Source: Candidatus Omnitrophota bacterium (GTDB lineage Bacteria; Omnitrophota; Gorgyraeia; Gygaellales; Profunditerraquicolaceae). Taken from it: a stretch of DNA of 64,000 bases. Where the stretch lies: contig JAQUQW010000003.1 in NCBI GenBank assembly GCA_028716245.1, positions 20,638 through 84,637 on the forward strand, given 5' to 3'. The notes beneath the pieces are model-generated. The model was given only the letters and a program-made list of their open reading frames with translations. It was not told the origin of the DNA and did not search any database. The first letter of the stretch is position 1; every line of letters begins with the position of its first letter. The position numbers and the translations under genes were made by a program. Of this stretch, positions 27,601 to 62,126 are shown piece by piece.

Positions 27601-29252
27601 TCCTCACGGATCGGATCAATCGGAGGGTTAGTTACCTGGGCAAATAATTGTTTGAAGTAAGAAAACAAAAGTTGCGGCTTAGCTGAAAGCACGGCATGCG
27701 GAGTATCATTACCCATCGAGCCCACCGGCTCTTGAGCATTTTCAGCCATTGGCTTAATAAGCATTTTCAGATCTTCGCGGGTATAACCAAAAGCCTTTAG
27801 CTGGGTTAAAATAGGGACAGCGACCATTTTTTTCTTCACCTCTTTATTCAAGAAAAAATGGGCGCTGTCCCTATTTTTATCTAGTTCTAGTATATTTTTC
27901 TTAACCCATTGCTCATATGGCTTATCTTCGCTGAGCTCTTTTTTTATCTGGCTGTCTTCAATTATACATCCGGCTTTTGTATCGATAAAAAATGTCTTGC
28001 CCGGCTCAAGCCGTCCTGAATGCAGAATAGCGGAAGGCTCAATATCCAGAACTCCGACCTCAGAAGCCATCACCACAAAATCATCTTTGGTCACAATATA
28101 GCGGCACGGCCGCAATCCGTTACGATCAAGGACCGCTCCGATAGACACACCATCAGTAAAAACCATGGCTGCCGGGCCATCCCAAGGTTCGATAAGGCAG
28201 GTATGATATTTATGGAAAGCCCTTACCTCTTGGGCAAGCAGATTATTCTGCTCCCAGGCAGCCGGTATAAGCATCGAGATTGACTGCGTCAGGCTTCTCC
28301 CGGACAAGGTTAGGAGCTCAAAAACATTATCAATGGTCGCCGAGTCACTACCGCCGGGCACAATTACCGGGAATATTTTCTTTAGGTCTTGGCCAAACAA
28401 TTCGCTCTTTAAAAAATCTTGGCGGGCGCGCATCCAGTTAATATTACCTCTTAAGGTGTTGATCTCTCCGTTATGGGCGATAAACCTAAACGGCTGAGAC
28501 AGGTCCCAGGTAGGAAAAGTGTTGGTGGAGTAACGTGAATGCACCATGGCTAAAGCGCTTTTAATCTCCTGGGAACTCAAATCCAAAAAGAAGTTTTCCA
28601 CCTGATGCGGCATAAGCAGGCCTTTATAGATAAAGGTGCGGCTGGATAAGCTGGGAATATAGAAAAAAGTTTTTTGTTTTATTCTGGAAGCGCGGATAAT
28701 ATTTTCAACCTGCTTGCGGATAACATAAAGCTTCCTTTCAAAAGCCGGGCAATCGGTTATTTTTTTACCGCGCCCGATAAAAATCTGCTCAATTTGCGGC
28801 TGGGTATCTACGGCGGTTTTACCGATATCCTGATTATTTACCGGCACACTGCGCCAGCCTAAAAATACTAAAGCTTCATCATGAATGACTTTTTCAAATG
28901 TTTCTTTGCAGAATTTGCGCTCGTTGGTATCTTGAGGCAAAAATACTAACCCTGAGGCATATTCACCTTCTTTAGGCAGACGGATATTTTCTTTTTCGCA
29001 TACAGAAGAAAAAAATTCATGCGGAAACTGAATAAGCAGGCCTGCTCCGTCACCGGTTTTAGGATCTGCGCCGGTTGCTCCGCGGTGGCTCAGGCGGCGT
29101 AAAACCTCCAGGCCCTGCTTGACAATATCATTACTCTTTTTACCTTTGATATTGCAAACAAATCCCACTCCACATGAGTCATGCTCAAACCGTGGATCGT
29201 ATAAACCCTGCTTTTTTGGCAAATGTACCTGTTTCATAAATTTGTTTTCCAC
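24684..29252 (-). CDS. gltB: glutamate synthase large subunit
   Basis: 1522 aa; N-terminal amidotransferase CGVGFV, FMN/Fe-S central domain, C-terminal GXXG-repeat domain. Confidence 0.95.
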   Translation of the reverse strand: MENKFMKQVHLPKKQGLYDPRFEHDSCGVGFVCNIKGKKSNDIVKQGLEVLRRLSHRGATGADPKTGDGAGLLIQFPHEFFSSVCEKENIRLPKEGEYASGLVFLPQDTNERKFCKETFEKVIHDEALVFLGWRSVPVNNQDIGKTAVDTQPQIEQIFIGRGKKITDCPAFERKLYVIRKQVENIIRASRIKQKTFFYIPSLSSRTFIYKGLLMPHQVENFFLDLSSQEIKSALAMVHSRYSTNTFPTWDLSQPFRFIAHNGEINTLRGNINWMRARQDFLKSELFGQDLKKIFPVIVPGGSDSATIDNVFELLTLSGRSLTQSISMLIPAAWEQNNLLAQEVRAFHKYHTCLIEPWDGPAAMVFTDGVSIGAVLDRNGLRPCRYIVTKDDFVVMASEVGVLDIEPSAILHSGRLEPGKTFFIDTKAGCIIEDSQIKKELSEDKPYEQWVKKNILELDKNRDSAHFFLNKEVKKKMVAVPILTQLKAFGYTREDLKMLIKPMAENAQEPVGSMGNDTPHAVLSAKPQLLFSYFKQLFAQVTNPPIDPIREELVMSLASYLGPEKNILSDGEDHCHKLLVARPVLSDIEIKKIRRIRKNGFKTKTISLLFKVGGKTDFSKALKKIFQEAEEAIKKGYTFIILSDRGVNKNYAGIPSLLAVSALHHYLVRHSLRTQISIILESAEPREVNHFALLFAYGVDCVNPYLVFKLLEEMAKEKELNLGFEKAKHNYIKAIDKGILKVLSKMGISTLQSYRGAQIFEAVGLSQNVIDEYFTGTVSRINGVSLDVIVKETILRHKEAFAVRSQGENHLASGGLYQWRRDGEFHLWNPDSIAALQDAVRNNDLKKYQEFTNFINDQSKNPTTLRSLLKFKTQKSIPLDQVEPVEEIVKRFATGAMSFGSISRATHETIAIAMNRLGARSNTGEGGEDPARFVPLPNGDSARSAIKQVASGRFGVTTNYLVNADEIQIKMAQGAKPGEGGQLPGHKVSAIIAKTRYTTPGVTLISPPPHHDIYSIEDLAQLIFDLKNANPKARISVKLVSEIGVGTVAAGVAKGHADMILISGQDGGTGASPLSSIKHAGLPWELGLSETHQTLVLNDLRSRVRLQTDGQMRTGRDVAIAALLGAEEFGFCTAVLIVLGCVMLRHCNLNNCSVGIATQDEVLEKRFTGRPEYIINYFTFIANELRQIMSSLGIKKLEEMVGRVDLLELNQGILPWKAKEIDFSKILYKPQVPESVITHYCKQQDHGIDKILDLRLIELSNPALIEAKNVEINQKIENINRATGAMLSGEVCKRFGESGLPEDTIKCNFRGVAGQSFGAFLAKGITFTLEGMANDYVGKGISGGKIIIYPDKSVEYKPEENIIIGNTTFYGAINGEAYIRGVAGERFCIRNSGLNAVIEGLGDHGCEYMTGGRVVVLGKCGRNFGAGMSGGIAYCLDERNDFKKRCNLEMVALEKIDAQDAETIKKLLFNHHKYTQSPRAKEILDDFHKYTNLFIKVMPLEYKRILEEKEAVKKADLGEYTDG

Positions 29253-29764: not shown

Positions 29765-31960
29765 CTATTTAATGAACAGCATTTCGCGATACTTAGGCAA
29801 ATCCCAGGCATCATCGGAAACTACGCATTCCAGCTGGTCAACATGCTTTCGAATATGCTCCATCAAAGGTTTAAGCTCATCAAAATAAAGCTTGGCGCGT
29901 TTTTCATTGCTTAGCTTCCTAGCATCCTCAAGCAGCTTAACCATTTCACCAACATTTCTGCGCACATAATATATCTTAGCGACTATTTCAGCCAAATGTT
30001 CTTTTTTGTCTTTTAATGCCGCGATATCTACTTTTAAGCCGGCATCTTTCTGCAACTTGACCAACGCGTCCAGGTTTGCCGCCAACAATTTTTCATATTC
30101 ATAGCCTGCCGGCACTACCGAAGCATTAACCATTTCGTTTAAGGTATTGGCCTCGATTTCAAGAATCAAGTTATACATATGGACCCAGATATGGTAACGG
30201 GCAATCAACTCTTCTTTAGAGAAGACTTTGTACTTCTCAAAAAGGGCAATATTCTCTTTTTTGGTTAAAGCTTCCAGGGATTCATAAGTTGAAGCGATAT
30301 TCGGTAACCCTCGCTTCTTGGCTTCTTTAATCCATTCTTCCGCGTAGTTATTTCCTTCAAAGCGGATATCTTTGGTTTCTTTAACAATCTTGGAAATTAC
30401 CATTAACACCGCGGAATTAAAATCCTTTCCCGTAGATTTGGCCCGCTTGATCTGTTCAGCGACATAATCAAGGCTTTCAGCAATGATGGTATTGATTACC
30501 GCAATGGGTGTGGAGATATTCTGCGATGAACCGACGGCACGGAATTCAAACTTTGCGCCGGTAAAAGCAAAAGGCGAAGTACGGTTACGGTCAGTTGAGT
30601 CCTTGTTGAATTTAGGCAAGCGGGCTATGCCTAAATCAATAATATCAGCTTTAGAAACTTTAGACTTAACCCCTTTTTCAATCATATTTAAAATAGAGGT
30701 TAACTGCTCCCCTAAGAATACACTAATAATCGCCGGAGGGGCTTCATTAGCGCCTAAGCGGTGCTCGTTGCCGGCAAGGGCAACTGAAGCGCGCAATAAA
30801 TCGGCGTGCAGATAAACCGCCCTTAAAACCGCGGCTAGGACGGCTAAAAATTGTAAATTATCTTCCGGAGTCTGTCCCGGATTAAGTAAATTATCGCCTT
30901 TATCATCTGCCAGCGACCAGTTTAAATGCTTGCCGCTGCCGTTGATTCCGGCAAAAGGTTTCTCATGCAATAAACAAACCAGGCCATGGCGTAAAGCAAC
31001 TTTTTTCATCAATTCCATAAGCAACTGATTGTGATCGGCGGCAATATTTGATTCTTCAAATATCGGAGCAAATTCATACTGATGCGGGGCAACTTCATTG
31101 TGCCGGGTCATTACCGGTATACCCAATTTATAAGCCTCTTCAGCCACCTCAAACATAAAATTAACCACCCGCTCTTTAATCGTGCCGAAATACTGATCCT
31201 CTAACTGCTGGCCTTTAGGAGATGGCGCTCCAACCAGGGTCCGGCCGGTCATGATCAAATCCTGGCGTAAATTGTAATAGTTCTTATCGATCAGGAAATA
31301 TTCCTGCTCCGGCCCGCAGGTAGAAAATATCTTTTTTACATCTTTATGGCCGAAAAGTTTAATCAGGCCTAAAGCGGCATTGTTTAACGCTTCATCCGAA
31401 CGTAAAAGCGGCAGCTTCTTATCCAGGGCTTCTCCATGGTAAGAAATGAATATCGTGGGAATACAGAGAGTCTTACCGAGCTTGCTTTCAATAATAAATG
31501 CCGGGCTGGAAGGATCCCAAGCAGTATAACCTCTGGCTTCAAAGGTTGCCCGGATTCCTCCTGATGGAAAACTGGAGGCATCCGGTTCACCCTGGATTAA
31601 TTTATTCCCCGAGAATTTTTCGATTACTTTTCCCGGAGCGGTTATCGAAATAAAACTGTCATGCTTTTCCGCGGTAAGCCCGGTCATCGGCTGAAACCAG
31701 TGCGTATAATAAGTAGCGCCTTTTGCCATTGCCCAGTCTTTCATCGCGTTAGCAATCTCATTTGCCTGCGCTAAAGTTATGGTTTTACCTTCGGACATCC
31801 AGGTCTTGAATGCCTCAAAAGTACCTTTGGAAATATGCTTTTGCATGGTCTCGGTGCTGAAGGTATTCACACCGAAATAAGAAGAAACTTTTTTAGGAGA
31901 ATCTATTTTCTCTAATTCGGTACTTTTAATTTTAAATAAAACTTTCTGTCTTATACTCAT
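29765..31960 (-). CDS. glnN: glutamine synthetase type III
   Basis: 731 aa; GSIII-type N-terminal extension and catalytic domain; AGGAGG SD 6 nt upstream. Confidence 0.9.
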   Translation of the reverse strand: MSIRQKVLFKIKSTELEKIDSPKKVSSYFGVNTFSTETMQKHISKGTFEAFKTWMSEGKTITLAQANEIANAMKDWAMAKGATYYTHWFQPMTGLTAEKHDSFISITAPGKVIEKFSGNKLIQGEPDASSFPSGGIRATFEARGYTAWDPSSPAFIIESKLGKTLCIPTIFISYHGEALDKKLPLLRSDEALNNAALGLIKLFGHKDVKKIFSTCGPEQEYFLIDKNYYNLRQDLIMTGRTLVGAPSPKGQQLEDQYFGTIKERVVNFMFEVAEEAYKLGIPVMTRHNEVAPHQYEFAPIFEESNIAADHNQLLMELMKKVALRHGLVCLLHEKPFAGINGSGKHLNWSLADDKGDNLLNPGQTPEDNLQFLAVLAAVLRAVYLHADLLRASVALAGNEHRLGANEAPPAIISVFLGEQLTSILNMIEKGVKSKVSKADIIDLGIARLPKFNKDSTDRNRTSPFAFTGAKFEFRAVGSSQNISTPIAVINTIIAESLDYVAEQIKRAKSTGKDFNSAVLMVISKIVKETKDIRFEGNNYAEEWIKEAKKRGLPNIASTYESLEALTKKENIALFEKYKVFSKEELIARYHIWVHMYNLILEIEANTLNEMVNASVVPAGYEYEKLLAANLDALVKLQKDAGLKVDIAALKDKKEHLAEIVAKIYYVRRNVGEMVKLLEDARKLSNEKRAKLYFDELKPLMEHIRKHVDQLECVVSDDAWDLPKYREMLFIK

Positions 31961-31972
31961 TTCTTCCTCCTA

Positions 31973-32018
31973 GCCCACAAGGGCACACCCGCGCAATTCC
32001 TTATAAGCGCGGGGTGTT
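31973..32018 (-). repeat. GC-rich hairpin element copy 1 (REP-like / candidate 5'-UTR RNA structure) directly upstream of glnN SD
   Basis: gcccacaagggcacacccgcgcaattccttataagcgcggggtgtt; 11-bp stem ACACCCGCGC/GCGCGGGGTGT plus small hairpin GCCC-ACAA-GGGC. Confidence 0.6.
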
Positions 32019-32104
32019 GCATGAAATAGTTAATTTATTCTACCACAATCAGTAAAAATTAAAAGAGGCATTCTTTAAGGTCCCAGAACGCCCCTGTTCT
32101 CTCT

Positions 32105-32145
32105 AAGTACAAGTAAAAAACTTGCGCTTCTGGTAACCTGTTTTC
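32105..32145 (-). promoter_or_regulatory. conserved promoter-region motif copy A (TACAAGTAAAAA-N10-TGGTAACC)
   Basis: One of 4 similar ~45-nt segments (others 34008..34050, 35993..36040, 44633..44680), each just after a minus-strand stop codon and 100-250 nt before the next start. Confidence 0.35.
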
Positions 32146-32487
32146 TTACCCAATAGCTATTGCCCCGCGTTCTTCAGTTCTTATACGCACACACTCCTTA
32201 AGATCCAAAACAAAGATCTTGCCATCCCCGGTTTCACCGGTCTTAGCCCCTTTAACAATGGCTTTGATTGTCGGCTCAAGATAATTATCATTTACGGCAA
32301 TTTCAAGACGAATTTTACGCAAAAGGTTTCCGGTTTCCCTGGCCCCCCGATAAACTTCCGTCACGCCTTTCTGCCGGCCATGGCCTAGGACCTCGCTTAC
32401 CGTAAGCAAATTCACCTGCGCTTTATACAACTCTTCTTTTACTTCCTCTAATTTATACGGTTGAATTATCGCAATGACTAATTTCAT
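32146..32487 (-). CDS. glnK: nitrogen regulatory protein P-II
   Basis: 113 aa MKLVIAIIQPYK...; T-loop ...GRQKGVTEVYRG (Tyr51). AGGAGG SD before ATG 32487. The ORF-track TTG extension to 32523 translates the repeat element and is rejected. Confidence 0.9.
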   Translation of the reverse strand: MKLVIAIIQPYKLEEVKEELYKAQVNLLTVSEVLGHGRQKGVTEVYRGARETGNLLRKIRLEIAVNDNYLEPTIKAIVKGAKTGETGDGKIFVLDLKECVRIRTEERGAIAIG

Positions 32488-32499
32488 GTATCCCTCCTT

Positions 32500-32545
32500 G
32501 CCCACAAGGGCACACCCGCGCAATTCCTTATAAGCGCGGGGTGTT
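32500..32545 (-). repeat. GC-rich hairpin element copy 2 in amt-glnK intergenic region
   Basis: Identical to copy 1 over 45 nt; abuts the amt stop codon and the glnK SD. Confidence 0.6.
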
Positions 32546-33770
32546 ATTCTAAAATTGTATATGCGCGTTCACGATGCTGGGTAAGGTCAAGGCCAACCAG
32601 CTCATCCTTTTCGCTTACCCGCATCCTAAAGAAGACATCTACCAGTTTGTAAATAACGAAAGTGGCAAAGAAAGTGTAACTAACCGCAACCACAACCGCA
32701 ACTAATTGTATCAGCAGCTGTTTAGAATTACCATAGAATAATCCATTTGCGCCGGCCGGGTTAATTATCTTAGAAGCCAATACCCCTGTCAAAAGCGTGC
32801 CAAGTATCCCTCCGACGCCATGCACGCCAAAAGCATCCAAAGAATCATCATAACCAAACCGCGGTTTGGTTACGGCAACCGCGATAAAACAAATTATGCT
32901 GGCGGCAATCCCGATAATAATGGCTGAAATCGGGCTGACAAATCCTGAGGCAGGAGTAACAGTAGCAAGTCCTGCAATTGAACCGGTTACGATTCCAAAT
33001 ACCGTGGGCTTGCCATTACGGATCCACTCCAAAAATGCCCAGCTTAAACCCGCTGCTGCTGCGGCAGTATTGGTAGCAATAAAAGCGCTTACGGCAACTC
33101 CATTTACCGCTAAAGCGCTTCCGGCATTAAAACCATACCAGCCAAACCATAAAAGCGCAGTCCCCAAAACTACAAAAGGAAGATTATGCGGCGATGGCGT
33201 ATGCTCCAGGTTTTTTCGCTTACCGATAACAATCGTCGTAACTAAAGCGGCGATGCCTGCGCTGGTATGCACGACAATTCCTCCGGCAAAATCCAAGACA
33301 CCCAGGTTCCTGAGCCATCCGCCAACTCCCCAAACCCAGTGGCACAAAGGATCATAAACAAATGTTGCCCAGAGCAAAGTGAAAACTAAAAATGCCGAAA
33401 ACTTCATCCGCTCGGCAAAAGCGCCGATAATTAAAGCCGGAGTAATCACGGCAAACATCATCTGAAAAACCATAAATGCCTGATGCGGGATAGTCGCGGA
33501 ATAACCCGCGTAAGGAGTCGCCCCCACTCCGTTTAAGCCAAACCAACTAAGCCCTCCCCAAAATCCGTTGCCCGGGGCAAATGCAAGGCTGTAACCAAAA
33601 AGTATCCATTGCAAAGATAATAAACATAAGGCCACAAAACATTGCATTAAGACACTTAAGATATTCTTGCGCCTGACCATGCCGCCGTAGAAAAAAGCCA
33701 GGCCGGGGGTCATCAACATTACAAAGGCCGCCGACATCAAAACGAATAACGTATCTGCTTGATTAATCAT
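32544..33770 (-). CDS. amt: ammonium transporter Amt
   Basis: ~408 aa, 11 TM, Amt signature regions; GGGAGGTGAG SD favours ATG at 33770 (the ORF-track start 33782 lies within the SD). Confidence 0.9.
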   Translation of the reverse strand: MINQADTLFVLMSAAFVMLMTPGLAFFYGGMVRRKNILSVLMQCFVALCLLSLQWILFGYSLAFAPGNGFWGGLSWFGLNGVGATPYAGYSATIPHQAFMVFQMMFAVITPALIIGAFAERMKFSAFLVFTLLWATFVYDPLCHWVWGVGGWLRNLGVLDFAGGIVVHTSAGIAALVTTIVIGKRKNLEHTPSPHNLPFVVLGTALLWFGWYGFNAGSALAVNGVAVSAFIATNTAAAAAGLSWAFLEWIRNGKPTVFGIVTGSIAGLATVTPASGFVSPISAIIIGIAASIICFIAVAVTKPRFGYDDSLDAFGVHGVGGILGTLLTGVLASKIINPAGANGLFYGNSKQLLIQLVAVVVAVSYTFFATFVIYKLVDVFFRMRVSEKDELVGLDLTQHRERAYTILE

Positions 33771-33821
33771 CTCACCTCCCATAAATAGTTCTTTCTCTTA
33801 AGCCCCATTTCCCGATTAGCT

Positions 33822-34050: not shown

Positions 34051-34392
34051 TTATCCTATCGCCGAGTTTCCCTGCTCTTCGGTGCGGATGCGGATACATT
34101 CCTTAAGATCCAGGATAAAGATTTTACCGTCGCCAGTTTCACCGGTCTTAGCCCCTTTAACAATAGCTTTGATTGTCTGGTCAAGGTAGTTATCATTCAC
34201 GGCAATCTCAAGACGAATTTTACGCAAAAGGTTTCCGGTTTCCTTCGAACCACGGTAAACTTCCGTCACGCCTTTCTGCCGGCCGTGCCCTAAAACTTCA
34301 CTTACGGTAATCAGGTTTACTTCCGCTTTATACAATTCTTCTTTTACTTCCTCTAATTTATACGGTTGAATTATCGCAATGACTAATTTCAT
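34051..34392 (-). CDS. glnK: nitrogen regulatory protein P-II (second copy)
   Basis: 113 aa, near-identical to the 32146 copy; Tyr51 present. Confidence 0.9.
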   Translation of the reverse strand: MKLVIAIIQPYKLEEVKEELYKAEVNLITVSEVLGHGRQKGVTEVYRGSKETGNLLRKIRLEIAVNDNYLDQTIKAIVKGAKTGETGDGKIFILDLKECIRIRTEEQGNSAIG

Positions 34393-34415
34393 AAAAACCT
34401 CCTTGTGAGAATCCA

Positions 34416-34457
34416 GGGGACGGTTCTGGAAAATCCAGAACCGTCCCCGTGTTTTTC
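34416..34457. repeat. perfect 12-bp hairpin GGGGACGGTTCTGG-AAAATCC-AGAACCGTCCCC with T-run, in amt-glnK intergenic region
   Basis: Read directly from sequence; occupies the same position as hairpin element copy 2 in the other amt-glnK pair. Confidence 0.5.
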
Positions 34458-34458
34458 G

Positions 34459-35688
34459 CTATTCTAATATGGTATACGCCCTCTCTCTATGCTGTGTCAG
34501 GTCAAGGCCCATAGCTTCTGACTTCTCATCCACCCTGACCCCGATAAAAATATCTACTAATTTGTAGATGATAAAGGTCATAACTCCCGTATAAACAACA
34601 GTTACCCCTACAGCTAAAAGCTGAACCAGGAACTGTTTGGGGTTACCAAAAAATACTCCGTTGGCACCGGCGGAATTAACCAGCTTGGAGGCAAATAACC
34701 CGGTAGCCAATGCCCCCCAAATTCCTCCGACACAATGCACGCCAAAAGCATCCAGCGAATCATCATAACCAAACAAAGGTTTGATTACGGTTACAGCGAT
34801 AAAACAAAATACACTTACCAATAAACCGATAATAATTGCCGGGATAACACTGACAAAACCCGCCGCTGGAGTAATCGCAACTAATCCGGCAACCGCGCCC
34901 GAACAAAGGCCGAAGATAGTCGGTTTACCATTACGGATCCACTCAATCAAAGCCCAACTTAAACCCGCGGCCGCCGCGGCAGTGTTGGTCACGACAAAAG
35001 CGTTTACCGCCAGGCCATTTGCCGCTAAAGCGCTTCCGGCATTAAAACCAAACCAGCCAAACCATAAAAGCGCCGTGCCTAAGACCACAAAAGGCATATT
35101 ATGCGGTGTAGGTACATTTTTCTCCAGGTTATTTCTTTTACCTAACACAATTGCCGTCACTAAAGCAGCGATACCGGCGTTGATGTGCACGACAGTGCCT
35201 CCGGCAAAATCCAAAGCTCCCAAATTCCTCAGCCATCCACCTATTCCCCAAACCCAGTGGCATAGAGGATTATAAACAAAGGTTGCCCAAAGCAGGGTAA
35301 AAATTAAAAAAGCCGAAAACTTCATCCTCTCGGCAAACGCACCGATGATTAAAGCCGGAGTGATTATCGCGAACATCGCCTGAAAGATCATAAAGGCCTG
35401 ATGCGGAATCGTTCCGGAGTAGTCCGCATAAGGCTCTAAACCTACTCCATTTAAACCCAGCCATTGCAGCCCTCCCCAGAATCCATTTCCCGGGTGAAAA
35501 GATAAACTATAACCCACCAAAACCCATTGCAGGCTTAAAACACACATAATGATAAAACATTGCATCAAAACACTTAACACATTCTTGCGCCTGACCATGC
35601 CGCCGTAGAAAAAAGCCAGGCCGGGAGTCATCAATAAAACCAGCGCTGATGAAATCAAAACCCACGCCGTATCGCCTGAATTAATCAT
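34459..35688 (-). CDS. amt: ammonium transporter Amt (second copy)
   Basis: 409 aa, paralogous to the 32544 copy. Confidence 0.9.
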   Translation of the reverse strand: MINSGDTAWVLISSALVLLMTPGLAFFYGGMVRRKNVLSVLMQCFIIMCVLSLQWVLVGYSLSFHPGNGFWGGLQWLGLNGVGLEPYADYSGTIPHQAFMIFQAMFAIITPALIIGAFAERMKFSAFLIFTLLWATFVYNPLCHWVWGIGGWLRNLGALDFAGGTVVHINAGIAALVTAIVLGKRNNLEKNVPTPHNMPFVVLGTALLWFGWFGFNAGSALAANGLAVNAFVVTNTAAAAAGLSWALIEWIRNGKPTIFGLCSGAVAGLVAITPAAGFVSVIPAIIIGLLVSVFCFIAVTVIKPLFGYDDSLDAFGVHCVGGIWGALATGLFASKLVNSAGANGVFFGNPKQFLVQLLAVGVTVVYTGVMTFIIYKLVDIFIGVRVDEKSEAMGLDLTQHRERAYTILE

Positions 35689-36604: not shown

Positions 36605-36650
36605 TACACCCCGCGCTTATAATGTATTGCGCGGGTGTGCCCTGGTGGGC
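36605..36650 (+). repeat. GC-rich hairpin element copy 3, inverted orientation, between sigma-factor gene and P-type ATPase gene
   Basis: tacaccccgcgcttataatgtattgcgcgggtgtgccctggtgggc = reverse complement form of copies 1/2; preceded by CCCATATGGG palindrome. Confidence 0.55.
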
Positions 36651-36774: not shown

Positions 36775-39700
36775 TCAACTAAAATTCCCAAAACGTTTCC
36801 GCAATTCTTCGATAGCAAATATCGATAGCATAAATAGAAATAATATCACCCAGTCCCCTGAGCTTAAACCCGTAGTATTGAATATCTTCTGAAAAAACGG
36901 CACGTAGATCAAGACGCAGGTAAAAATAAACGAAATGGCAATACTCCAGAAAATACGCATATTACTGAAAAACCCGATCCTAAATGTTGAATATTTTTCG
37001 CTGCGGCAATTAAAAACATTGGCGATTTGCATCACGACAATACCAACAAAAAGAATGGTCATTGCCTTCAGATGCAGCGGATTAGTAAAGGTAGTGTCAT
37101 TTGGCTCAAGCTGCATTCCGGGTTTCCATCCTCCCTGAAAAAGTATAAGATAATAGGAACCTAAGGTTGCCGCCGTGCTCAACAGCCCCAAAATGATATA
37201 ACCTCTAAAGAGCACCATTTTATCAATCACTCCTTTATTCTTAGGCCTTGGCGGAAGGTTCATTATCCCCGGCTCGGGTTTCTCCGCGCCTAAGGCCAAG
37301 GCGGGAAAAATCTCCGTGCCCAAATCAATAGCTAAAATCTGCAGTACGGCAATCGGCACGGGAATCTTAAATAAAACATAGAATATAAAAGGTATCCCCT
37401 CGGGTACAAGGTGGGCGAAGATATAGGTAATAAATTTCTTGATATTATCGAATACCGCCCGGCCCTCTTCAATAGCCGAAACGATACTGGCAAAATTATC
37501 GTCGAGCAGAACCATCTCGGCGGATTCTTTGGCCACGTCAGTCCCGCGCAGCCCCATCGCCACGCCAATATCGGAACGCTTAAGGGCAGGGGCATCGTTG
37601 ACGCCGTCTCCGGTCACCGCCACGATATTACCCATCTCCTTAAAAGTATTTACCACCCTTAATTTATGCTCGGGATTTGCCCTGGCAAAAATAATTTCTT
37701 TGCTGCCAACCTTCTCCTTTAATTGCTCATCGCTCATATGAATCAAATCTGTTCCGTTAATAACTTCGTAATTTTGCGAAGACACAATCCCTACCTGCCT
37801 GGCGATAGATAGGGCGGTTACCTGATAATCACCGGTAATCATCACCACGCGAATTCCGGCTTTTTTGCAAATCCCGACAGCATCTTTTACTTCCGGCCGG
37901 GGTGGATCATACATACCCGTGGCTCCGACAAAAACCAACTCTTTTTCAACCGACTGCGCCGTCGCCCCGGAAATATCCTTGGGATTAATTTTACAAAATG
38001 CAAAACCCAAAACCCTTAAACCTTCTTCGGCAAACCTCTCTACAGAAGCGGATATTTCCGATTTCTTCTCTACAGTCAAATCCGCGATATCGTTTCCAAG
38101 CATAACCTTATTACAAAGCTCCAGGATCTCTTTAGGAGAGCCCTTAACCAACGCATAAGTATCTCCATCGGGAAGAGTATGGATAGAGCTCATTCTCTTA
38201 CGTATCGATTCAAATGGAAAACGTTTTAGTACCGGATATTTTAGGCGCTCTTGGTCGGCGTCATAACCGGCTTTTCGCATTAAGGTCAATAATGCGGCTT
38301 CCGTCGGATCGCCAATAATACTCCAATACGTTATCGTCTCTGAGGGAGAATTTAGCTTTGCGGTATTGCATAATGCGCAAATATGCATCAGCTGATCAAA
38401 AGCAGCGCTCCGAAGAACATTTTTTAAAAGAACGCTGCCCTTACAAGTAAATTCTCCTGCCGGTTCATATCCGCTTCCGGAGGCTTCGATAACCTTATCA
38501 TCGATCCAAATTTTCCGGACACTCATTTGATTGGTTGTCAGCGTGCCGGTTTTATCCGTGCAAATAACGTTGGTACAACCCAACGTTTCTACTGAAGAAA
38601 GTTTTTTGATCAGGGCTTTCCGCTTAGCCATCCGCTGCACGGCCATGGCCAAGGCAAGGGTCAAAGTAGGCATGAGCCCCTGAGGAACATTGGCCGTAAT
38701 AATACCTATCGCAAACATTCCCGAAGCAAAAACCGTCAATTTAGTAAAAAATAAACCCGCAAAGAAAAAAACCAAACCCATAGCTACCGATATAAATGAA
38801 ATCAATTTGCCGATGCGATTGACCTCTCTTTGCAGCGGGCTGAGATCTTCTTTGACCGTCTGCGTCAGGTAGGCGATTTTACCAATCTCGGTCCCCATAC
38901 CCGTGGCAATGACCACCGCTTTTCCCATGCCTGAGGCAACGCTGGTTCCGGCAAAAACCAAATTAGGCATTTCCAGCCACAGAAAATCCTTTCCGTCATG
39001 AAATTCCTCTGAAAATTTATAGGCCAGCTTGGATTCTCCGGAGAAGGCGCTATTGTTCAAGCGTAATTCGGCAGCTTCGATCAACCTGGCATCCGCGGGG
39101 ACGTTATCTCCTTCCTCCAGCATAATGATATCTCCCGGGACAATCTCGCTTGTAGGCACGAGCTTCTCCTTGCCCTCCCTGATTAGACGGGCATTAGATG
39201 GAATCAGTTTGGAAAGCGCCTCAATCGCCTTCTCCGCTTTAAACTCCTGCCAAAAACTAAATATCGCGTTAATAAAGACTACGGCAATGCAGGCCCAACC
39301 TGCCTCCGGCATCTGCGCCCAAAAACAAAGGGCGCCGCAAATCCACATCATCACCGCCAGTAAATTAGTAAGATGGAGCGAGAACCTTATAATCAAGGGG
39401 GTTTTTTTAACGGCTTTCAATTTATTGGTTCCATATACCTCCAGCCGTTTTCCCGCGGAAACTTCAGAGATACCGTTATCGCTGCTTGCCAATTCAAGAT
39501 AAATCTCCTCTTTGCTTAAAGCGATAAAACCTTCTTTCTCGATTCCTCCATACTTTAAGGCCCGATAGAGCTCCTCGTTGGTTGAGCAGTTCAGGATCTG
39601 CCGGACAAATACTTTATTATCCAAGAGTACGGCCAGCTTCGATAAAATTTTAAGATGCATTTCGCTTTCTACCAGCGGAGTCAGAAAAAACATAACCAAA

Positions 39701-40029
39701 TGCACCGGCTTCTTGTCAATGGAAGAAAAATCTATTCCTTCCCTTGAGATGCCAACAAATATCAATCCCTCTTTTAGTTCAGCTATTCTAGCATGGGGGA
39801 TAGCTATGCCATCCCCGATTCCGGTACTGCCAAGCTTTTCCCTTTTGAGAAGGCTTTCTAAAACACGTTTTTTGTCTTTAATTTTGCGGCTTTTATAAAG
39901 CTGGTCGACAATCTCCCGGATTACACCTTCACTTGTACGGGATTTCAAGTTTACGCTTAATAGATCCTTATATACCAAATCCGCGATTTTCACTTCTTGC
40001 TCTCCTTTTATACCAGCGTTCTCATACAA
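36775..40029 (-). CDS. P-type cation-transporting ATPase with N-terminal PTS EIIA(Ntr)-like domain
   Basis: N-terminal ~150 aa: ...GIGDGIAIPHARI... (EIIA type-2 active-site His). Remainder: DKTGTLT phosphorylation motif, TGDGVNDAPAL, 8-10 TM. TTG start. Confidence 0.85.
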   Translation of the reverse strand: MYENAGIKGEQEVKIADLVYKDLLSVNLKSRTSEGVIREIVDQLYKSRKIKDKKRVLESLLKREKLGSTGIGDGIAIPHARIAELKEGLIFVGISREGIDFSSIDKKPVHLVMFFLTPLVESEMHLKILSKLAVLLDNKVFVRQILNCSTNEELYRALKYGGIEKEGFIALSKEEIYLELASSDNGISEVSAGKRLEVYGTNKLKAVKKTPLIIRFSLHLTNLLAVMMWICGALCFWAQMPEAGWACIAVVFINAIFSFWQEFKAEKAIEALSKLIPSNARLIREGKEKLVPTSEIVPGDIIMLEEGDNVPADARLIEAAELRLNNSAFSGESKLAYKFSEEFHDGKDFLWLEMPNLVFAGTSVASGMGKAVVIATGMGTEIGKIAYLTQTVKEDLSPLQREVNRIGKLISFISVAMGLVFFFAGLFFTKLTVFASGMFAIGIITANVPQGLMPTLTLALAMAVQRMAKRKALIKKLSSVETLGCTNVICTDKTGTLTTNQMSVRKIWIDDKVIEASGSGYEPAGEFTCKGSVLLKNVLRSAAFDQLMHICALCNTAKLNSPSETITYWSIIGDPTEAALLTLMRKAGYDADQERLKYPVLKRFPFESIRKRMSSIHTLPDGDTYALVKGSPKEILELCNKVMLGNDIADLTVEKKSEISASVERFAEEGLRVLGFAFCKINPKDISGATAQSVEKELVFVGATGMYDPPRPEVKDAVGICKKAGIRVVMITGDYQVTALSIARQVGIVSSQNYEVINGTDLIHMSDEQLKEKVGSKEIIFARANPEHKLRVVNTFKEMGNIVAVTGDGVNDAPALKRSDIGVAMGLRGTDVAKESAEMVLLDDNFASIVSAIEEGRAVFDNIKKFITYIFAHLVPEGIPFIFYVLFKIPVPIAVLQILAIDLGTEIFPALALGAEKPEPGIMNLPPRPKNKGVIDKMVLFRGYIILGLLSTAATLGSYYLILFQGGWKPGMQLEPNDTTFTNPLHLKAMTILFVGIVVMQIANVFNCRSEKYSTFRIGFFSNMRIFWSIAISFIFTCVLIYVPFFQKIFNTTGLSSGDWVILFLFMLSIFAIEELRKRFGNFS

Positions 40030-40067
40030 ATAAAAAACCAGAGAACGCTTTCCCTGGCATGTTCTCT
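40030..40067 (-). terminator. leader terminator hairpin (AGAGAAC-N14-GUUCUCU + U6) immediately upstream of ATPase start; overlaps alternative antiterminator
   Basis: Plus-strand 40040..40046 / 40061..40067 inverted repeat; U-run from 40039..40030 on minus strand; 3' arm AGCGUUCUC is also exactly complementary to codons 3-5 (GAGAACGCU). Confidence 0.4.
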
Positions 40068-40233
40068 CAAAATTGGCTTACGAGGTTAGCTGTCGGGCTC
40101 GGGTCGAGTAACCCTAATCTGATATTTCCAGATATTGGCCCCAAGATCATTTTAGTCGATCGGATTCTTGGATTCCCCGCTATCTTTTTAGATTCACATA
40201 CAAGTCTAAAAAAAGATTAAGCTTATTAAAATA

Positions 40234-49346: not shown

Positions 49347-49361
49347 TTTCAATTCCTCCTT

Positions 49362-49406
49362 GCCACAAGGGCACACCCGCGCAATTCATTATAGGCGCGG
49401 GGTATT
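49362..49406 (-). repeat. GC-rich hairpin element copy 4, directly upstream of lrp SD
   Basis: gccacaagggcacacccgcgcaattcattataggcgcggggtatt. Confidence 0.6.
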
Positions 49407-49498
49407 GTCTAAATATGGCAAATATCCGCGCCTTTTCAATATAGAATGGATTATATACCACTAAATTCTGAGGGTCAAGGAGATATATTTGCAAAAAA

Positions 49499-49576
49499 CT
49501 ACTAAGGGACGCTACTAAGGGACGTCCTGTTAGGGGACACCCTTAGAAAAGGGTGTCCCCTAACAGGACGTCCCCG
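49499..49576. repeat. tandem direct repeats (CTACTAAGGGACG x2) followed by 24-bp perfect palindrome with 4-nt loop
   Basis: Direct repeats 49499..49511 and 49512..49524; inverted repeat arms 49521..49544 / 49549..49572; lies between phoU stop and lrp. Confidence 0.6.
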
Positions 49577-49605
49577 ATTAGAGGAAAGCAAAAGACGGAA
49601 ATTAA

Positions 49606-50274
49606 CTATTTTAATTCTTCGGGATGGTGCTTGACTACCTTCGCCTCAACCATATAAATTACATCTTCGGCGATATTGGTAGTATGGTCGCAGATACGCT
49701 CTAGGTATCTGGCAATAAGTATCAATGCCACGGCACGATCAGCGGTTTTGGGATCACGTGCCAGATATTCATTAACCAGTTCATCCTGCACCAGATTACG
49801 CAGCTTATCAGCTTCGCAATCCGCTAAAACTACCTGCCGGGCCAGCTGGGCATCTTTCTTTACAAATGCGTCAATTGCATCCTTTACCATATTCTGCGCC
49901 ACCTGGGAAAGTTTGGGAATATCTACTAATGGCTTAAGTAAAGGCTTGTCCATCAATCCTAAGGATTTTTGTGAAATATCCAAAGCTATATCGGCAATCC
50001 GCTCCAGTTCCGTATTTATCTTCATCCCGGTTGTAATATACCTTAGGTCTCCTGCCATCGGCTGGTAACGGGCAATAAGATCGATGCATTTCTCATCGAT
50101 TGCCAACTCCAGTTCATCGATCTTATTATCGGTATCAATTACATCCTGAGCCAGGTATTTGTCGCGGTTCTTTAGCGACTCGATAGATTTAAATATCGAC
50201 TCCTGGGCAAATACCGCCATTTTTAAAATTTCCTTGTGCAGTTCCTTTAATTCTTCATCTAAGTGTCTTAACAT
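49606..50274 (-). CDS. phoU: phosphate signalling regulator PhoU
   Basis: 222 aa, two PhoU repeats (E/DxxxD motifs). Confidence 0.85.
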   Translation of the reverse strand: MLRHLDEELKELHKEILKMAVFAQESIFKSIESLKNRDKYLAQDVIDTDNKIDELELAIDEKCIDLIARYQPMAGDLRYITTGMKINTELERIADIALDISQKSLGLMDKPLLKPLVDIPKLSQVAQNMVKDAIDAFVKKDAQLARQVVLADCEADKLRNLVQDELVNEYLARDPKTADRAVALILIARYLERICDHTTNIAEDVIYMVEAKVVKHHPEELK

Positions 50275-50285
50275 TGGACTCCTCC

Positions 50286-51041
50286 TTAACCGTATCGGCC
50301 GGTAATATAGTCTTCTGTCCGCTTATCTTTCGGCCTGGTAAAAATATCCTCTGTTTTACCAAACTCAACCAACTCGCCTAAAAGCATAAAACCCGTTTGG
50401 TCCGAAACGCGCGCTGCCTGCTGCATATTATGCGTAACAATTATTATCGTATAGTTATTCTTGAGTTCACGCATTAATTCCTCAATACGGCTGGTTGCCT
50501 GCGGGTCAAGGGTCGAACAGGGTTCATCCATCAGTAAAATCTCGGGCTTAACCGCGATCAGCCGGGCAATACAAAGCCGCTGCTTTTGTTCGAGCGATAA
50601 GCTCAGCGCGGATTTATTCAGCCTATCTTTAAGTTCATCCCATAAAAGAACGGATTTTAAACTATCCTCAACCACCCCATCAAGTTTAAGCTTGGTTAGG
50701 CCTTCGGCATGCACCTTCTGGCCAAAAACAATATTCTCATAAATAGATAACGGAAAAGGATTGGGACGCTGAAAAACCATACCTACTTTTTTACGCAAGC
50801 CCACTAAATCCGTTTTATCGGAAATTATATTCTGTGCGTCGATAATTACTTCTCCTTCAACGCGCACCCCCTCAATAAGGTCGTTCATCCGGTTAAATAC
50901 CCGCAGTAAAGTCGACTTACCGCATCCCGATGGCCCGATCATGGCGGTAATTTGGTTTTGGGTAAAATGCGCGTTCACCTTGATCAGCGCCTGAAAATCC
51001 GCGTACCATAAATTTAAATTATTTACCTTAATCTCCGCCAT
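50286..51041 (-). CDS. pstB: phosphate ABC transporter ATP-binding protein
   Basis: [34 protein letters not shown]. Confidence 0.9.
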
Positions 51042-51787
51042 TATCCGAATTTTCCTCTAATATAGCCATCGGTACGCTGGTCGCCTGGTGCCGTAAATAT
51101 CTTTTCGGTCCGGTCCAATTCTATCAACTCCCCTGACAGAAAGAATGCTGTACGATCCCCCACTCTGGCTGCCTGCTTTACATTATTGGTTACTAAAACT
51201 ATCGTGTAGTCTTTTTTTAATTTAAGCATTGCCTCTTCAACTTTGGCGGTTGAAATCGGGTCAAGCCCGGAACAAGGCTCATCAAATAAAATAACCTCCG
51301 GCTCAACTGCCAGGGTCCGGGCAATACAGAGACGCTGCTGCTGTCCGCCGGATAATTTAAAAGCCGAGACATCCAGCCTATCCTTAACCTCATCCCAGAG
51401 ATAGGCTTGTTTTAATGCACGCTCAACAACCCCTGAAATCCTGCCGCGGTTATTTTCTCCGTGCATCCTGACGCCATAAGCCACGTTTTCAAAAATTGAT
51501 AGAGGCAGGGGCAGGGGTAAAGCAAAAACCATGCCTACTTTTTTACGCAAGACCTCAATATCTATTTTTCTTACATCTTCTTGATCAAGCTCCAGCCATC
51601 CGCTCATTTTAAAACCCGGATGCAGATCATTTAAACGGTTGAGCATACGCAGGAAACTTGTCTTTCCGCTGTTGGACGGGCCGATTACGCTTAAAATCTC
51701 ATTGGCCTCTACCTCGATGTTCACACTTTTTAAAGCGTGAATATGGCTAAACCAGATGTTCAGATTTTTAGCGCTAAACTTTACCAT
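51041..51787 (-). CDS. pstB: phosphate ABC transporter ATP-binding protein (tandem paralog)
   Basis: [34 protein letters not shown]. Confidence 0.85.
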
Positions 51788-52629
51788 TTTTTCTTTTTCC
51801 TGAAGTTATAACGGATAATTATGGCAATTAAATTCATAAACAAAACTAAAGATAACAAAACCAAAGCCGTGCCATAACGTATTTTTTCATCCACATTAGG
51901 CACTTGGGTTGAAATTACATACAAGTGATACGGCAATGCCATCGCCTGGTCAAAAATAGATTTGGGCAGCTGCGGCAGATAGAAAGCGGCGACGGTAAAA
52001 AGAATTGGAGCGGTTTCACCCGCTGCCCTGCCTAACCCAAGGATGGTACCGGTTAAAATACCCGGAATAGCATTGGGTAAAACTATATGCCTTATGGTTT
52101 GCCATTTACTTGCGCCCAAAGATAAGCTTACCTCGCGAAATGACTGCGGCACGCTTTCCAAAGCTTCCCGAGACGTAGTAATGATTATCGGCAGGATCAT
52201 TATCCCTAAAGTGAGTGAACCGGATAAAATCGATGCCCCGAATTTTAAGAAAACCACAAAAAGCGCCAAACCAAACAAGCCATAGACAACCGAAGGCACT
52301 CCGGAAAGATTTACGATTGCCAGCTTGATTATGCGGTTAAGTATATTCTCTTTGGCGTATTCACTTAAATAAATTGCCGCCAGCAGCCCGATAGGCAGGG
52401 CAAAGATTATCGCGCCCAGGACAAGGTAAAATGTCCCGATAATTGCCGGGAAGATCCCTCCTGTACGCATCCCCTGTCGCGGAATATCCGATAAAAACTG
52501 CCAGTTAATCGCCGGCAGGCCTTTCTGAATGATAATTACAACGATCAAACCAACCGGCACAACAATTAAAAGTGTGGCCAGGAGAAGAAAAAGGAAGGCG
52601 ATCTTTTGCGACCTTTGTGTATTACGCAT
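51781..52629 (-). CDS. pstA: phosphate ABC transporter permease PstA
   Basis: 282 aa, 6 TM, EAA-like loop. Confidence 0.85.
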   Translation of the reverse strand: MRNTQRSQKIAFLFLLLATLLIVVPVGLIVVIIIQKGLPAINWQFLSDIPRQGMRTGGIFPAIIGTFYLVLGAIIFALPIGLLAAIYLSEYAKENILNRIIKLAIVNLSGVPSVVYGLFGLALFVVFLKFGASILSGSLTLGIMILPIIITTSREALESVPQSFREVSLSLGASKWQTIRHIVLPNAIPGILTGTILGLGRAAGETAPILFTVAAFYLPQLPKSIFDQAMALPYHLYVISTQVPNVDEKIRYGTALVLLSLVLFMNLIAIIIRYNFRKKKKW

Positions 52630-53492
52630 TAATGCCTCTTATGTAAAAATAGATCCGCGGTAACATTAATAATAAAACTTATGATAAATAAGACTATCCC
52701 GATAGCAAAAAGCGCAAAATAATGTTCACTGCCCACAACAGCCTCACCCATCTCCGCGGCAATGGTGGCGGTCAAAGTGCGCACCGGCACAAGAATACTT
52801 TGCGGAATAACCGCGGCGTTGCCGGTAATCATCATTACCGCCATCGTCTCACCAATTACGCGGCCTATGCCAAGCATTACCGCGGCGACAATCCCTGAAG
52901 AGGCAGCCGGAAGCAAAACCCGGTAAATTGTCTGCCAATGCGTAGCTCCTAAAGCAAACGCGCCTTCTTTATAGCTCTTGGGCACCGAATAAAGCGCGTC
53001 CTCGGCAATCGAAACTATCGTCGGCATGGCCATAAAAGCTAAAATTATCGAGCCGGATAAGGCAGTCAAGCCGGTAGGTAAATGGAATACCGCCTTGACC
53101 CAGGGCACAAGCGTAACCATACCGATAAAACCCAAAACCACGCTAGGTATAGCCGCCAATAATTCAATTCCCGCTTTTAAAATTTCCTTGATGTTTAAAG
53201 GCGCGATTTCGGCGATATAAACCGCGCAGGCCACGCCTATGGGTATAGAGATAATCGCCGCGCCCATCGTTACCAAAAGAGAGCCGAAGATCAACGGCAG
53301 TATGCCTAATTGCGGAGGTTCTGAAATGGGATACCAACTTTTGCCAAAAATAAAATTAAAGGGAGTAACTGATTTAAATACGGATAGGCCTTCCTTGGCC
53401 AGAAATAAGAAAATCAAAATGACAAAAAATATAGAAGCTAATCCGCAGATCAGGATTAGCTTCTCAATGACAAATTCTTTTAACTTACGCAT
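52629..53492 (-). CDS. pstC: phosphate ABC transporter permease PstC
   Basis: 287 aa, 6 TM. Confidence 0.85.
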   Translation of the reverse strand: MRKLKEFVIEKLILICGLASIFFVILIFLFLAKEGLSVFKSVTPFNFIFGKSWYPISEPPQLGILPLIFGSLLVTMGAAIISIPIGVACAVYIAEIAPLNIKEILKAGIELLAAIPSVVLGFIGMVTLVPWVKAVFHLPTGLTALSGSIILAFMAMPTIVSIAEDALYSVPKSYKEGAFALGATHWQTIYRVLLPAASSGIVAAVMLGIGRVIGETMAVMMITGNAAVIPQSILVPVRTLTATIAAEMGEAVVGSEHYFALFAIGIVLFIISFIINVTADLFLHKRH

Positions 53493-61279: not shown

Positions 61280-61311
61280 AATCAGGCCTCTCTAATAAAA
61301 AGTTTTTTCAT

Positions 61312-62070: not shown

Positions 62071-62081
62071 ATTCCTTCCTT

Positions 62082-62126
62082 GCCCACAAGGGCATACTGG
62101 CGCAATTCAAATAAGCGCCAGGTATT
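62082..62126 (-). repeat. GC-rich hairpin element copy 5 (stem with compensatory substitutions) in pstA-pstB intergenic region
   Basis: gcccacaagggcatactggcgcaattcaaataagcgccaggtatt: stem CATACTGGCGC/GCGCCAGGTAT versus CACACCCGCGC/GCGCGGGGTGT in other copies. Confidence 0.6.

Follow-up and report, generated by a model that had tools for sequence, protein, structure and literature searches.

Five copies of a short double-hairpin sequence were found in a 64,000-nt stretch of a Candidatus Omnitrophota genome (assembly GCA_028716245.1, contig JAQUQW010000003.1, positions 20,638 to 84,637; hereafter the window), four of them in sense orientation and directly abutting the Shine-Dalgarno (SD) sequence of a gene. 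Some 125 copies of the family were recovered from 45 species-level assemblies and from metagenome contigs, with an SD and a start codon following approximately 85–90% of the copies or arrays. The sequence, for which the name RBS-abutting hairpin element is proposed (RBS, ribosome-binding site), is probably, though far from certainly, a lineage-specific miniature mobile repeat of ~45–50 nt that inserts at the 5' edge of SD sequences and is co-transcribed with the adjoining gene. Its strict position (even in 5' untranslated regions (UTRs), where other positions are free), the turnover of individual slots, the remnants, and the nested and tandem arrays all point this way. A preliminary description of the window had suggested a role in translation control or in mRNA processing and stability; presence or absence in close relatives, remnants, the unrelated housekeeping genes downstream, and an SD accessibility that is not reduced favor a mobile repeat over such a role. 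An RNA-level effect on host genes is possible.

Read on the gene strand, family members often begin with TA, followed by R-Y-A-C-C, a larger hairpin (P1), a smaller one (P2), an A or T, and AGGAGG. P1 has 10 bp, a conserved CACC/GGUG base, and an invariant bulged C, present in 89 of 89 aligned copies; its loop is 8–12 nt long and in most cases contains GG. P2 follows directly, with no spacer, and has 4–6 bp, mostly as GCCC-UUGU-GGGC. In the window the unit reads ACACCCCGCGC, UUAUAAGGAAUU, GCGCGGGUGU, GCCC-UUGU-GGGC, and then (A/U)AGGAGG, with a P1 5' arm of 11 nt and a 3' arm of 10 nt, the difference being the bulged C. These hairpins had been described as an 11-bp stem with a 12-nt loop and a small GCCC-UUGU-GGGC hairpin running into the SD. 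Both are there, the small one abutting the SD in all four sense copies, but the stem has 10 bp and a single bulged C, the loop of copy 4 has 11 nt, and the small hairpin of copy 3 is one G short. The count of five and their coordinates agree with the earlier ones: with filters off, a covariance model derived from the family returned exactly these copies from the 64 kb (59–80 bits, E < 1e-12), the next-best match being the opposite strand of copy 5 (E = 0.13), and in shuffled sequence no matches to a 32-nt consensus are expected.

To collect the wider family, one genome per species was scanned for a 22-nt pattern drawn from the element's 3' half and excluding the SD. The pattern matched 79 loci, of which 71, from the 45 assemblies, hold family members; the remaining eight are chance matches, in coding regions and unrelated taxa and with the 5' arm absent. 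Nearly all of the assemblies are labeled Candidatus Omnitrophota or Omnitrophica, with a few Planctomycetales, Margulisiibacteriota, or Deltaproteobacteria metagenome-assembled genomes (MAGs). On 498 kb of these loci the covariance model gave 89 matches. A control set was chosen by protein: 80 metagenome loci encoding GlnN at 83–94% identity. All distribution statistics refer to loci around matches or around GlnN, and compared loci carry labels of the type L160 or L161. Element density ranges from 1 per 13 kb in the window to 1 per 22–28 kb in the protein-chosen loci. The closest relative in the collections is the MAG JAQURC01 (GlnN 96% identical), and orthologous proteins among carriers are 75–96% identical. 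A viral contig collection had no match to the pattern, and thus gave no sign that the element is phage-borne in that collection. Rfam has no family for it: the only match in the window at the gathering threshold is a c-di-AMP riboswitch at another site, and searching the region by E-value gave noise only. No description of the element was found in the literature on Omnitrophota RNA motifs, repeats, and hairpins.

Placement of the element is not random. Of 89 arrays, 77 have an SD and start codon 8–18 nt past the 3' end of the model (in one case at 0 nt, and with a mode of 12), and about four more are inner units of nested copies; in the protein-chosen set the same holds for 14 of 25 arrays, plus five nested ones. 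Random orientation and position, as for a pure repetitive extragenic palindromic (REP) sequence, had been named in the preliminary description as the outcome that would speak against a link to start codons. Since the pattern used for the collection contains no SD, the counts show that a set position and orientation with respect to start codons characterize the whole family. On the upstream side, 21 of 73 single or outer units (~29%) have their stem fused to the stop codon of a long preceding open reading frame (ORF), which occupies exactly positions -2 to +1; of the other 52, 19 have a TAA or TAG there, against a background of 6%. Approximately 95% of copies are in sense orientation; the inverted or orphan ~5% include window copy 5, two copies in L160, L079:3184, and copies in L116 and L104. 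Locus L079 was weighed as a demonstration that orientation goes with the gene on either strand and was dropped: its second copy, in the groES-groEL spacer, is an inverted orphan, and the ORF that seems to adjoin it is antisense to groES. Besides Amt, GlnK, GlnN, PstB, and Lrp, the downstream genes encode, by Pfam, DnaK, GroES, ribosomal proteins S8, L20, L31, and L9, ACP, MetK, PEPCK, RpoD, Skp, AhcY, HisB, AroC, PurE, PurB, a PALP-family pyridoxal phosphate-dependent enzyme, ferredoxin, a type II/IV secretion ATPase (T2SSE family), and a CdhD-family subunit of acetyl-CoA synthase. No common regulon is apparent among these; they are functionally unrelated, and many are highly expressed housekeeping genes.

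Individual slots are filled in some genomes and empty in others. In the protein-chosen set, about 16 of 78 glnN leaders carry the element (remnants and decayed copies counted), as do 7 of ~48 amt-glnK junctions. At ~20% and ~15%, respectively, it is not a conserved leader, and the idea of an ancient phylum-wide one was rejected on the control set. Empty amt-glnK junctions have GAA-TAA or GAA-TAG fused to GGAGG, the stop overlapping the SD. Remnants consist of a 5' arm in L080 and L081 (GCACCCCGCG|GUAAGGAGG) and a 3' half in L101. The two nearest relatives, L160 (GlnN 96%) and L161 (95%), are syntenic with the window and differ from it slot by slot. Between pstB and phoU the window is empty (GGT TAA GGAGG), while L160 (GGT TAG, element, AAGGAGG) and L161 are filled. 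The lrp 5' UTR and the glnN leader are filled in the window and empty in both relatives, with the same lrp promoter kept in L160. At the aminotransferase-ANTAR junction the window genes overlap (GAGGAGATAATG) with no element, L160 is filled at GAGG^AGATAATG, and L161 is not comparable. Of the two tandem amt-glnK paralogs in the window, one is filled and the other has a different hairpin; L160 likewise has a different hairpin there, and L161 a nested element. Upstream of an extracytoplasmic function (ECF)-sigma-like ORF there is one inverted copy in the window and two in L160, the region not being covered in L161. The pst paralogs of the window also differ, pstA1 and pstB1 overlapping with no element and the pstA2-pstB2 spacer consisting of one.

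Comparison of filled and empty pairs suggests N-A^AGGAGG as the insertion point; a further comparison gives ..GCA^AGGGAGG. The pairs show no target duplication of at least 2 nt, the flanking feature of miniature inverted-repeat transposable elements, with at most 1 nt of ambiguity, and 5' and 3' flanking bases are uncorrelated. Duplication of TA, AA, or GCA was considered and found support in neither the flank correlations nor the pairs. The only inverted repeat of the element is the P1 stem. A second copy is nested in the P1 loop in fourteen loci (L024, L048, L032, L066, L064, L045, L071, L077, L074, L089, L090, L139, L142, and L145), and tandem copies joined by TA(A) occur in five (L005, L046, L051, L070, and L115). 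The stem sequences of nested partners are nearly always different.

If the element is mobile, as these comparisons suggest, it would be copied into new sites nearly always in sense orientation, at the 5' edge of the SD, and without target duplication. In compact operons, where stop and SD are fused (TAAGGAGG), an insert would fill the exact stop-to-SD slot; in 5' UTRs it would come to lie between promoter and SD. A slot between promoter or stop and SD would mean that the element is co-transcribed with the gene. Its transcript would fold on itself into two adjacent hairpins, with the SD and start codon staying usable, which would explain its tolerance in ribosomal-protein and chaperone operons. 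SD targeting could then be intrinsic to the copying mechanism, possibly through the CCUU anti-SD-like tract of the element itself, and its presence would be near-neutral or only modulatory for expression. A specific form of this, in which the invariant-position CCCUU of P2 acts as an anti-SD mimic and pairs with AAGG/AGGAGG during homing, or in which the element is alternatively or additionally a portable operator for a lineage-specific protein, is conceivable but unlikely.

The hairpins themselves show covariation. Among 65 seed copies there are double changes at three P1 pairs (C-G/U-A, C-G/U-A, and C-G/G-C). Over the 89 model matches, 97.7% of pair cells are paired, and changes on both sides are found at 12 of 14 pairs as compared to 4.1 in shuffles; sliding the partner by 1–3 columns lowers pairing to 28–66%. 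The 89-copy alignment was fitted to the covariance model and so leans towards structure. A descriptor based on structure only, requiring R-Y-R, the bulged C, 7 bp, a 7–14 nt loop, the matching base, and a small hairpin after it, retrieved 83 units, all of them recognizable family members. P2 covariants include GCCC/GGGC, ACCC/GGGU, GCGC/GCGC, GCAC/GUGC, GUCU/AGAC, and ACAU/AUGU. GG is found in 69 of the 83 P1 loops, a terminal UU in 71, and GGA in 53; 16 have GGU only, and 14 have no GG. With GGA in only 53 of 83 loops the element does not have the makeup of a CsrA/RsmA-type bipartite site, and tblastn found no CsrA homolog in 1.2 Mb of collected loci, a weak test. Where the same gene is filled in two species, the element is 85–100% identical, while four-fold synonymous sites are mostly saturated, with 29–62% identity in all but one near-identical pair; for glnN in the window and L038 the values are 45 of 47 positions and 36%. 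Judged from the sequences, such an excess fits a constraint from the copying machinery, purifying selection on the RNA, or repeated insertion of a master sequence equally well. Two other proposals for the element were discarded: a pseudoknot between loop AAGG and P2 CCUU, whose variants show no compensation, and a promoter within the element (TATAAG in the loop), which is limited to the long-loop subfamily, occurs beside separate upstream promoters, and leaves the stem covariation unexplained. It is also unlike an intrinsic terminator, in that P2 and the SD come after P1 and a T run is lacking, and a terminator scan called none of copies 1, 3, and 5.

RNAfold predicts P1 in all window copies, with P2 in competition with a CCCUU:GAGGG helix that covers the SD. 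The minimum-energy fold has this helix in copy 2, a shorter CCUU:AAGG version in copy 3, and P2 in copies 1 and 4, so that the SD-occluding alternative proposed earlier does exist in prediction, in two of the four sense copies. Across the ensemble, however, the SD core is unpaired with a mean probability of 0.61 in 72 leaders with the element and 0.47 in 150 SD-bearing control genes from the same loci (p = 7e-5). For glnN leaders this probability is 0.62 if filled and 0.39 if empty (p = 0.003); for glnK leaders it is 0.47 and 0.57, a difference that is not significant. By these predictions there is no systematic occlusion of the SD by the element, and they give weak support to an insulating effect.

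The element might, alternatively, be a cis-acting RNA module of the host, kept by selection on the mRNA and only secondarily dispersed. Its roles could include insulation or presentation of the SD, caps against exonucleases at the 5' end of the downstream or the 3' end of the upstream message, or an operator for a lineage-specific RNA-binding protein. Much of the above is as expected for such a module: conservation far beyond that of synonymous sites, covariation in both helices together with the unvarying bulged C, six species with differing compensated stems at one and the same amt-glnK junction, the many highly expressed genes downstream, and the raised SD accessibility overall and at glnN. 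Different stems in nested pairs would avoid misfolding, and the L160 hairpins between an upstream GAAGG and the AUG could bring the two together. On the other side, the module would be dispensable at every slot examined, with 80–85% of orthologous glnN and amt-glnK sites empty, the nearest relatives differing, and remnants present; there is no common regulon, no gain in accessibility at glnK, and no Rfam match. Mismatch counts were considered as a sign of RNA-level selection, but at 12 G-U and 11 A-C they are uninformative: there is no RNA-strand-specific signal, and the equality permits no verdict. This explanation is held to be possible but rather doubtful. It and the mobile repeat are not exclusive, since mobile elements can be co-opted, and several points weigh against the mobile repeat in its turn. 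No transposase or other mobilizing gene was found by tblastn with IS200 and IS608 TnpA in the 1.2 Mb from more than 100 genomes, a search with approximate queries and thin coverage per genome. With neither target duplication nor terminal inverted repeats beyond the hairpin, mobility rests on presence/absence and nesting. Recurrent loss of an ancestral element could yield part of the presence/absence pattern, the high identity beside saturated synonymous sites also fits purifying selection, the varied compensated stems at one amt-glnK junction could reflect structure conserved in place, and where the spacer has zero length, adjacency to the SD could result from selection alone. How broad the host clade is remains uncertain as well, and at 75–96% ortholog identity a "phylum-wide" spread is not established.

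Mobility could also be of a known kind, the element being a classical REP/BIME or an IS200/IS605 derivative that travels as single-stranded DNA with the help of a Y1 (HUH) transposase or RAYT, with its orientation bias reflecting the replication strand. A hairpin with an extrahelical base, the lack of target duplication and terminal inverted repeats, the REP-like density, the mosaic, nested, and tandem arrays, and the fact that one inverted L160 copy also abuts an SD would all be in keeping with this, and as nearly all window genes are on the strand of positive GC skew, gene direction and replication direction are inseparable in the window. The GTAG head is absent, however, the 5' end being R-Y-A-C-C (ACACC, GCACC, ATACC); no inverted REPIN doublets were seen; ~95% of copies have one orientation and are 5' of an SD instead of 3' of genes; and no Y1 transposase was found in the 1.2 Mb of collected loci, again a weak test. 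At 45 nt the element is also shorter than any left-end plus right-end IS200/IS605 derivative known to us. Such an origin is judged improbable. More improbable still is a riboregulator or thermometer in which the CCCUU of P2 pairs with the SD (AAGG/GAGGG) in competition with P2, in response to upstream ribosomes, temperature, or a protein factor. The occluding helices of copies 2 and 3 would be explained, as would the CUU or CCU tract kept in most SD-proximal P2 variants despite stem changes, and some element-free glnN leaders have a UUCCUU of their own upstream of the SD. But ensemble SD accessibility is not below that of controls, pairing is weaker in the ~20% of copies with a GC-UAGGAG junction, and the tract is absent from some P2 variants (GCCCGUGU, UCACAGCUGUGA); covariation is no test of this pairing, since the SD is complementary to any pyrimidine tract. 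Two further classes do not fit: the copies are irregularly spaced in the window (527 nt, 4 kb, 13 kb, and 13 kb), unlike a CRISPR array, and for integron attC sites the ends of the element do not match the core sites (GTTRRRY) and the adjoining genes are housekeeping genes.

Among known systems, mycobacterial interspersed repetitive units (MIRUs) come close; according to a 2025 review (PMC12548453) they insert at start codons and affect expression only minimally. Like them, the element is short, apparently mobile, located at gene starts and intercistronic junctions in one orientation, apparently built to keep the downstream gene expressed, and can be in tandem. MIRUs, however, preserve expression through a small, translationally coupled internal ORF (-4 nt overlap) that overlaps the flanking stop and start codons, are from another host phylum, and share no sequence similarity with the element, which is a double hairpin that restores the SD; no conserved ORF runs through it, the upstream stop preceding or abutting it and the SD following. 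With the REP/BIME sequences of enterobacteria and pseudomonads it shares the GC-rich, imperfectly palindromic makeup, the length of ~35–45 nt, an extragenic but transcribed location, mosaics, many copies, and retention among relatives. REPs number in the hundreds of copies and lie for the most part 3' of genes, where either orientation occurs and inverted pairs are frequent, and they have a GTAG head recognized by RAYT; Liang, Rudd and Deutscher are said to have described in 2015 that stop-proximal REPs affect the upstream gene. REPs bear no relation to the SD, whereas ~90% of element copies are in sense orientation and abut one, and lack GTAG. Small dispersed repeats of cyanobacteria, as Elhai et al. 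reportedly described in 2008, form self-nested hairpins, which were taken as evidence of mobility without a known transposase. They resemble the element in being tiny hairpin repeats inserted within their own copies; they differ in length (21–27 nt), in having no reported RBS association, and in lineage. Correia (NEMIS) and ERIC/IRU sequences are co-transcribed miniature repeats that alter mRNA processing or stability depending on orientation. Their size is 100–150 bp, their position relative to the SD is variable, and Correia has terminal inverted repeats and a TA duplication; they are demonstrated substrates of RNase III or RNase E, whereas the element is known from sequence only.

Hairpin leaders such as the RNase III sites between T7 early genes, the split RBS of T4 gene 38, and RiboJ-type insulators can insulate an RBS from upstream sequence, shield the 5' end, or draw a remote SD near the AUG. 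They too are structured and directly 5' of the SD, but they are single, locus-specific, or engineered, while the element belongs to a dispersed family and has a 10-bp P1, too short for a canonical RNase III substrate. The aminotransferase-ANTAR case of L160 (3150–3240) resembles a split RBS. There the element is inside the former SD, the aminotransferase ORF continues across the 5' arm of P1 as far as a TAA in the loop of that hairpin, and the sole SD-like sequence, GAAGG, has come to lie 5' of both hairpins, with the AUG ~55 nt away; the junction may be a hairpin-bridged split RBS.

The window copies and adjoining signals are listed in Table 1. Pfam identifies the neighboring genes as GSIII glnN, PII glnK, amt, lrp/asnC, pstA, and pstB. 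In copies 2 and 4 the first base of the stem doubles as the final A of the amt and pstA stop codons, respectively, so that the element fills the whole stop-to-SD spacer in both, and the promoter-like site 44 nt upstream of copy 3 places this copy inside the lrp 5' UTR. Copy 4 has compensatory changes in its stem (CCTGGCGC/GCGCCAG) and, as CCUGGCGC/GCGCCAG, still has the bulged C. Copy 5 is inverted relative to the surrounding minus-strand genes, between a terminator-like hairpin (36717–36679) and the start of the ECF-sigma-like ORF (36557). Translation of the element into peptides such as RGCALVGK does produce spurious N-terminal extensions, as the preliminary description had it: longest-ORF callers extend glnK, lrp, and glnN through it (RGCALVGK, VSPCGQGG; window 32488–32523 and 49347–49376, and L089, L090, and L145).

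Table 1. Copies of the RBS-abutting hairpin element in the 64-kb window and the signals next to them.
Feature	Position	Strand	Score or remark
Copy 1, glnN 5' leader	31973..32017	-	77.6 bits
Copy 1 parts	P1 5' arm 32017-32007; loop 32006-31995; P1 3' arm 31994-31985; P2 31984-31973	-	
glnN SD and start, adjoining copy 1	31958..31972	-	TAGGAGG 31972-31966; ATG at 31960
Copy 2, entire amt-glnK spacer	32500..32544	-	80.2 bits
Copy 2 parts	P1 5' arm 32544-32534; loop 32533-32522; P1 3' arm 32521-32512; P2 32511-32500	-	Bulged C 32541
amt stop	32546-32544	-	TAA
glnK SD and start	32485..32499	-	AAGGAGGG 32499-32492; ATG 32487-32485
Copy 3, lrp 5' UTR	49362..49405	-	59.1 bits
Copy 3 parts	P1 5' arm 49405-49395; loop 49394-49383; P1 3' arm 49382-49373; P2 49372-49362	-	G missing in P2
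lrp SD and start	SD 49361-49355; ATG at 49346	-	AAGGAGG
Promoter-like site upstream of copy 3	49450..49478	-	TTGACC-17-TATAAT; 11/12 matches
Copy 4, entire pstA2-pstB2 spacer	62082..62125	-	68.8 bits
Copy 4 parts	P1 5' arm 62125-62115; loop 62114-62104; P1 3' arm 62103-62094; P2 62093-62082	-	11-nt loop
pstA stop	62127-62125	-	TAA, fused to copy 4 stem
pstB SD and start	SD 62081-62074; ATG at 62070	-	AAGGAAGG
Copy 5	36606..36650 (P1 36606-36638; P2 36639-36650)	+	67.9 bits; followed by AAAGGACG

Several other features of these loci may be noted. The amt-glnK pair is tandemly duplicated in the window (32146–33782 and 34051–35688, DNA 75–86% identical); the spacer of the second pair is a perfect 15-bp hairpin (GGGGACGGTTCTGGA/TCCAGAACCGTCCCC, 34407–34457), and a hairpin with its arm GGGGACGGTTCT recurs at the amt-glnK junction in L096, L101, and L160, the last of which has a single amt-glnK pair only. 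Element-free amt-glnK spacers in seven loci (L080, L081, L082, L084, L091, L106, and L154) hold TAG/GTAG-rich runs such as GGTAGGTAGTATGTAGAGGGTAGAATGTAGG, which may be another class of repeat or a stop-codon-rich insulator. In most glnN leaders a shared terminator-like hairpin precedes an extended -10 (TGGTAAAAT). Four element-free ones (L088, L094, L102, and L136) share AGUAUUCCUUAUAAAAUGCAAGG, in which the 11 nt AUUCCUUAUAA are the reverse complement of the element P1 loop and contain an anti-SD-like UUCCUU ~10 nt upstream of the glnN SD. Downstream of phoU and just upstream of the lrp promoter is an inverted repeat (49512–49581, minus strand) with 33-nt arms, 91% complementary and 4 nt apart; a T run comes next, the whole being probably a large terminator, and there is a similar long palindrome at 27801–27884. 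The window has two pst-phoU clusters, pstS-C-A-B-B'-phoU with two ABC ATPase genes (49606–54343) and pstC-A-B-phoU (60602–63899), whose phoU and pstB copies are 74–85% identical as DNA; a low-molecular-weight phosphotyrosine phosphatase gene is at 60090–60545. The c-di-AMP riboswitch (ydaO-type; 40059–40233, minus strand, 72 bits) is upstream of ORF 36775–40029, which encodes a 1084-residue P-type cation ATPase with an N-terminal phosphotransferase-system EIIA-2 domain, an unusual fusion. A possible second repeat family, GGGGACG, was dismissed, its count in the window being that expected by chance.

We know of no other small dispersed repeat whose defining property is to land on and regenerate an RBS. 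If targeting is intrinsic to the copying of the element, this would be a new target-site logic for mobile DNA, and if SD homing is true, the first mobile element to target the Shine-Dalgarno sequence; if the element is instead an operator read by a protein, each insertion would recruit a gene into a post-transcriptional regulon. The element leads to systematic mis-calls of start codons in the annotation of Omnitrophota MAGs, and its filled and empty alleles could act as strain markers. It would also be a natural portable RBS leader, tolerated in ribosomal-protein and chaperone operons. Omnitrophota are reported to have unusually high protein-synthesis activity (PMC10066038). If the hairpins do alter translation or mRNA stability, they would allow fast, gene-by-gene retuning of expression in this little-known uncultured phylum.

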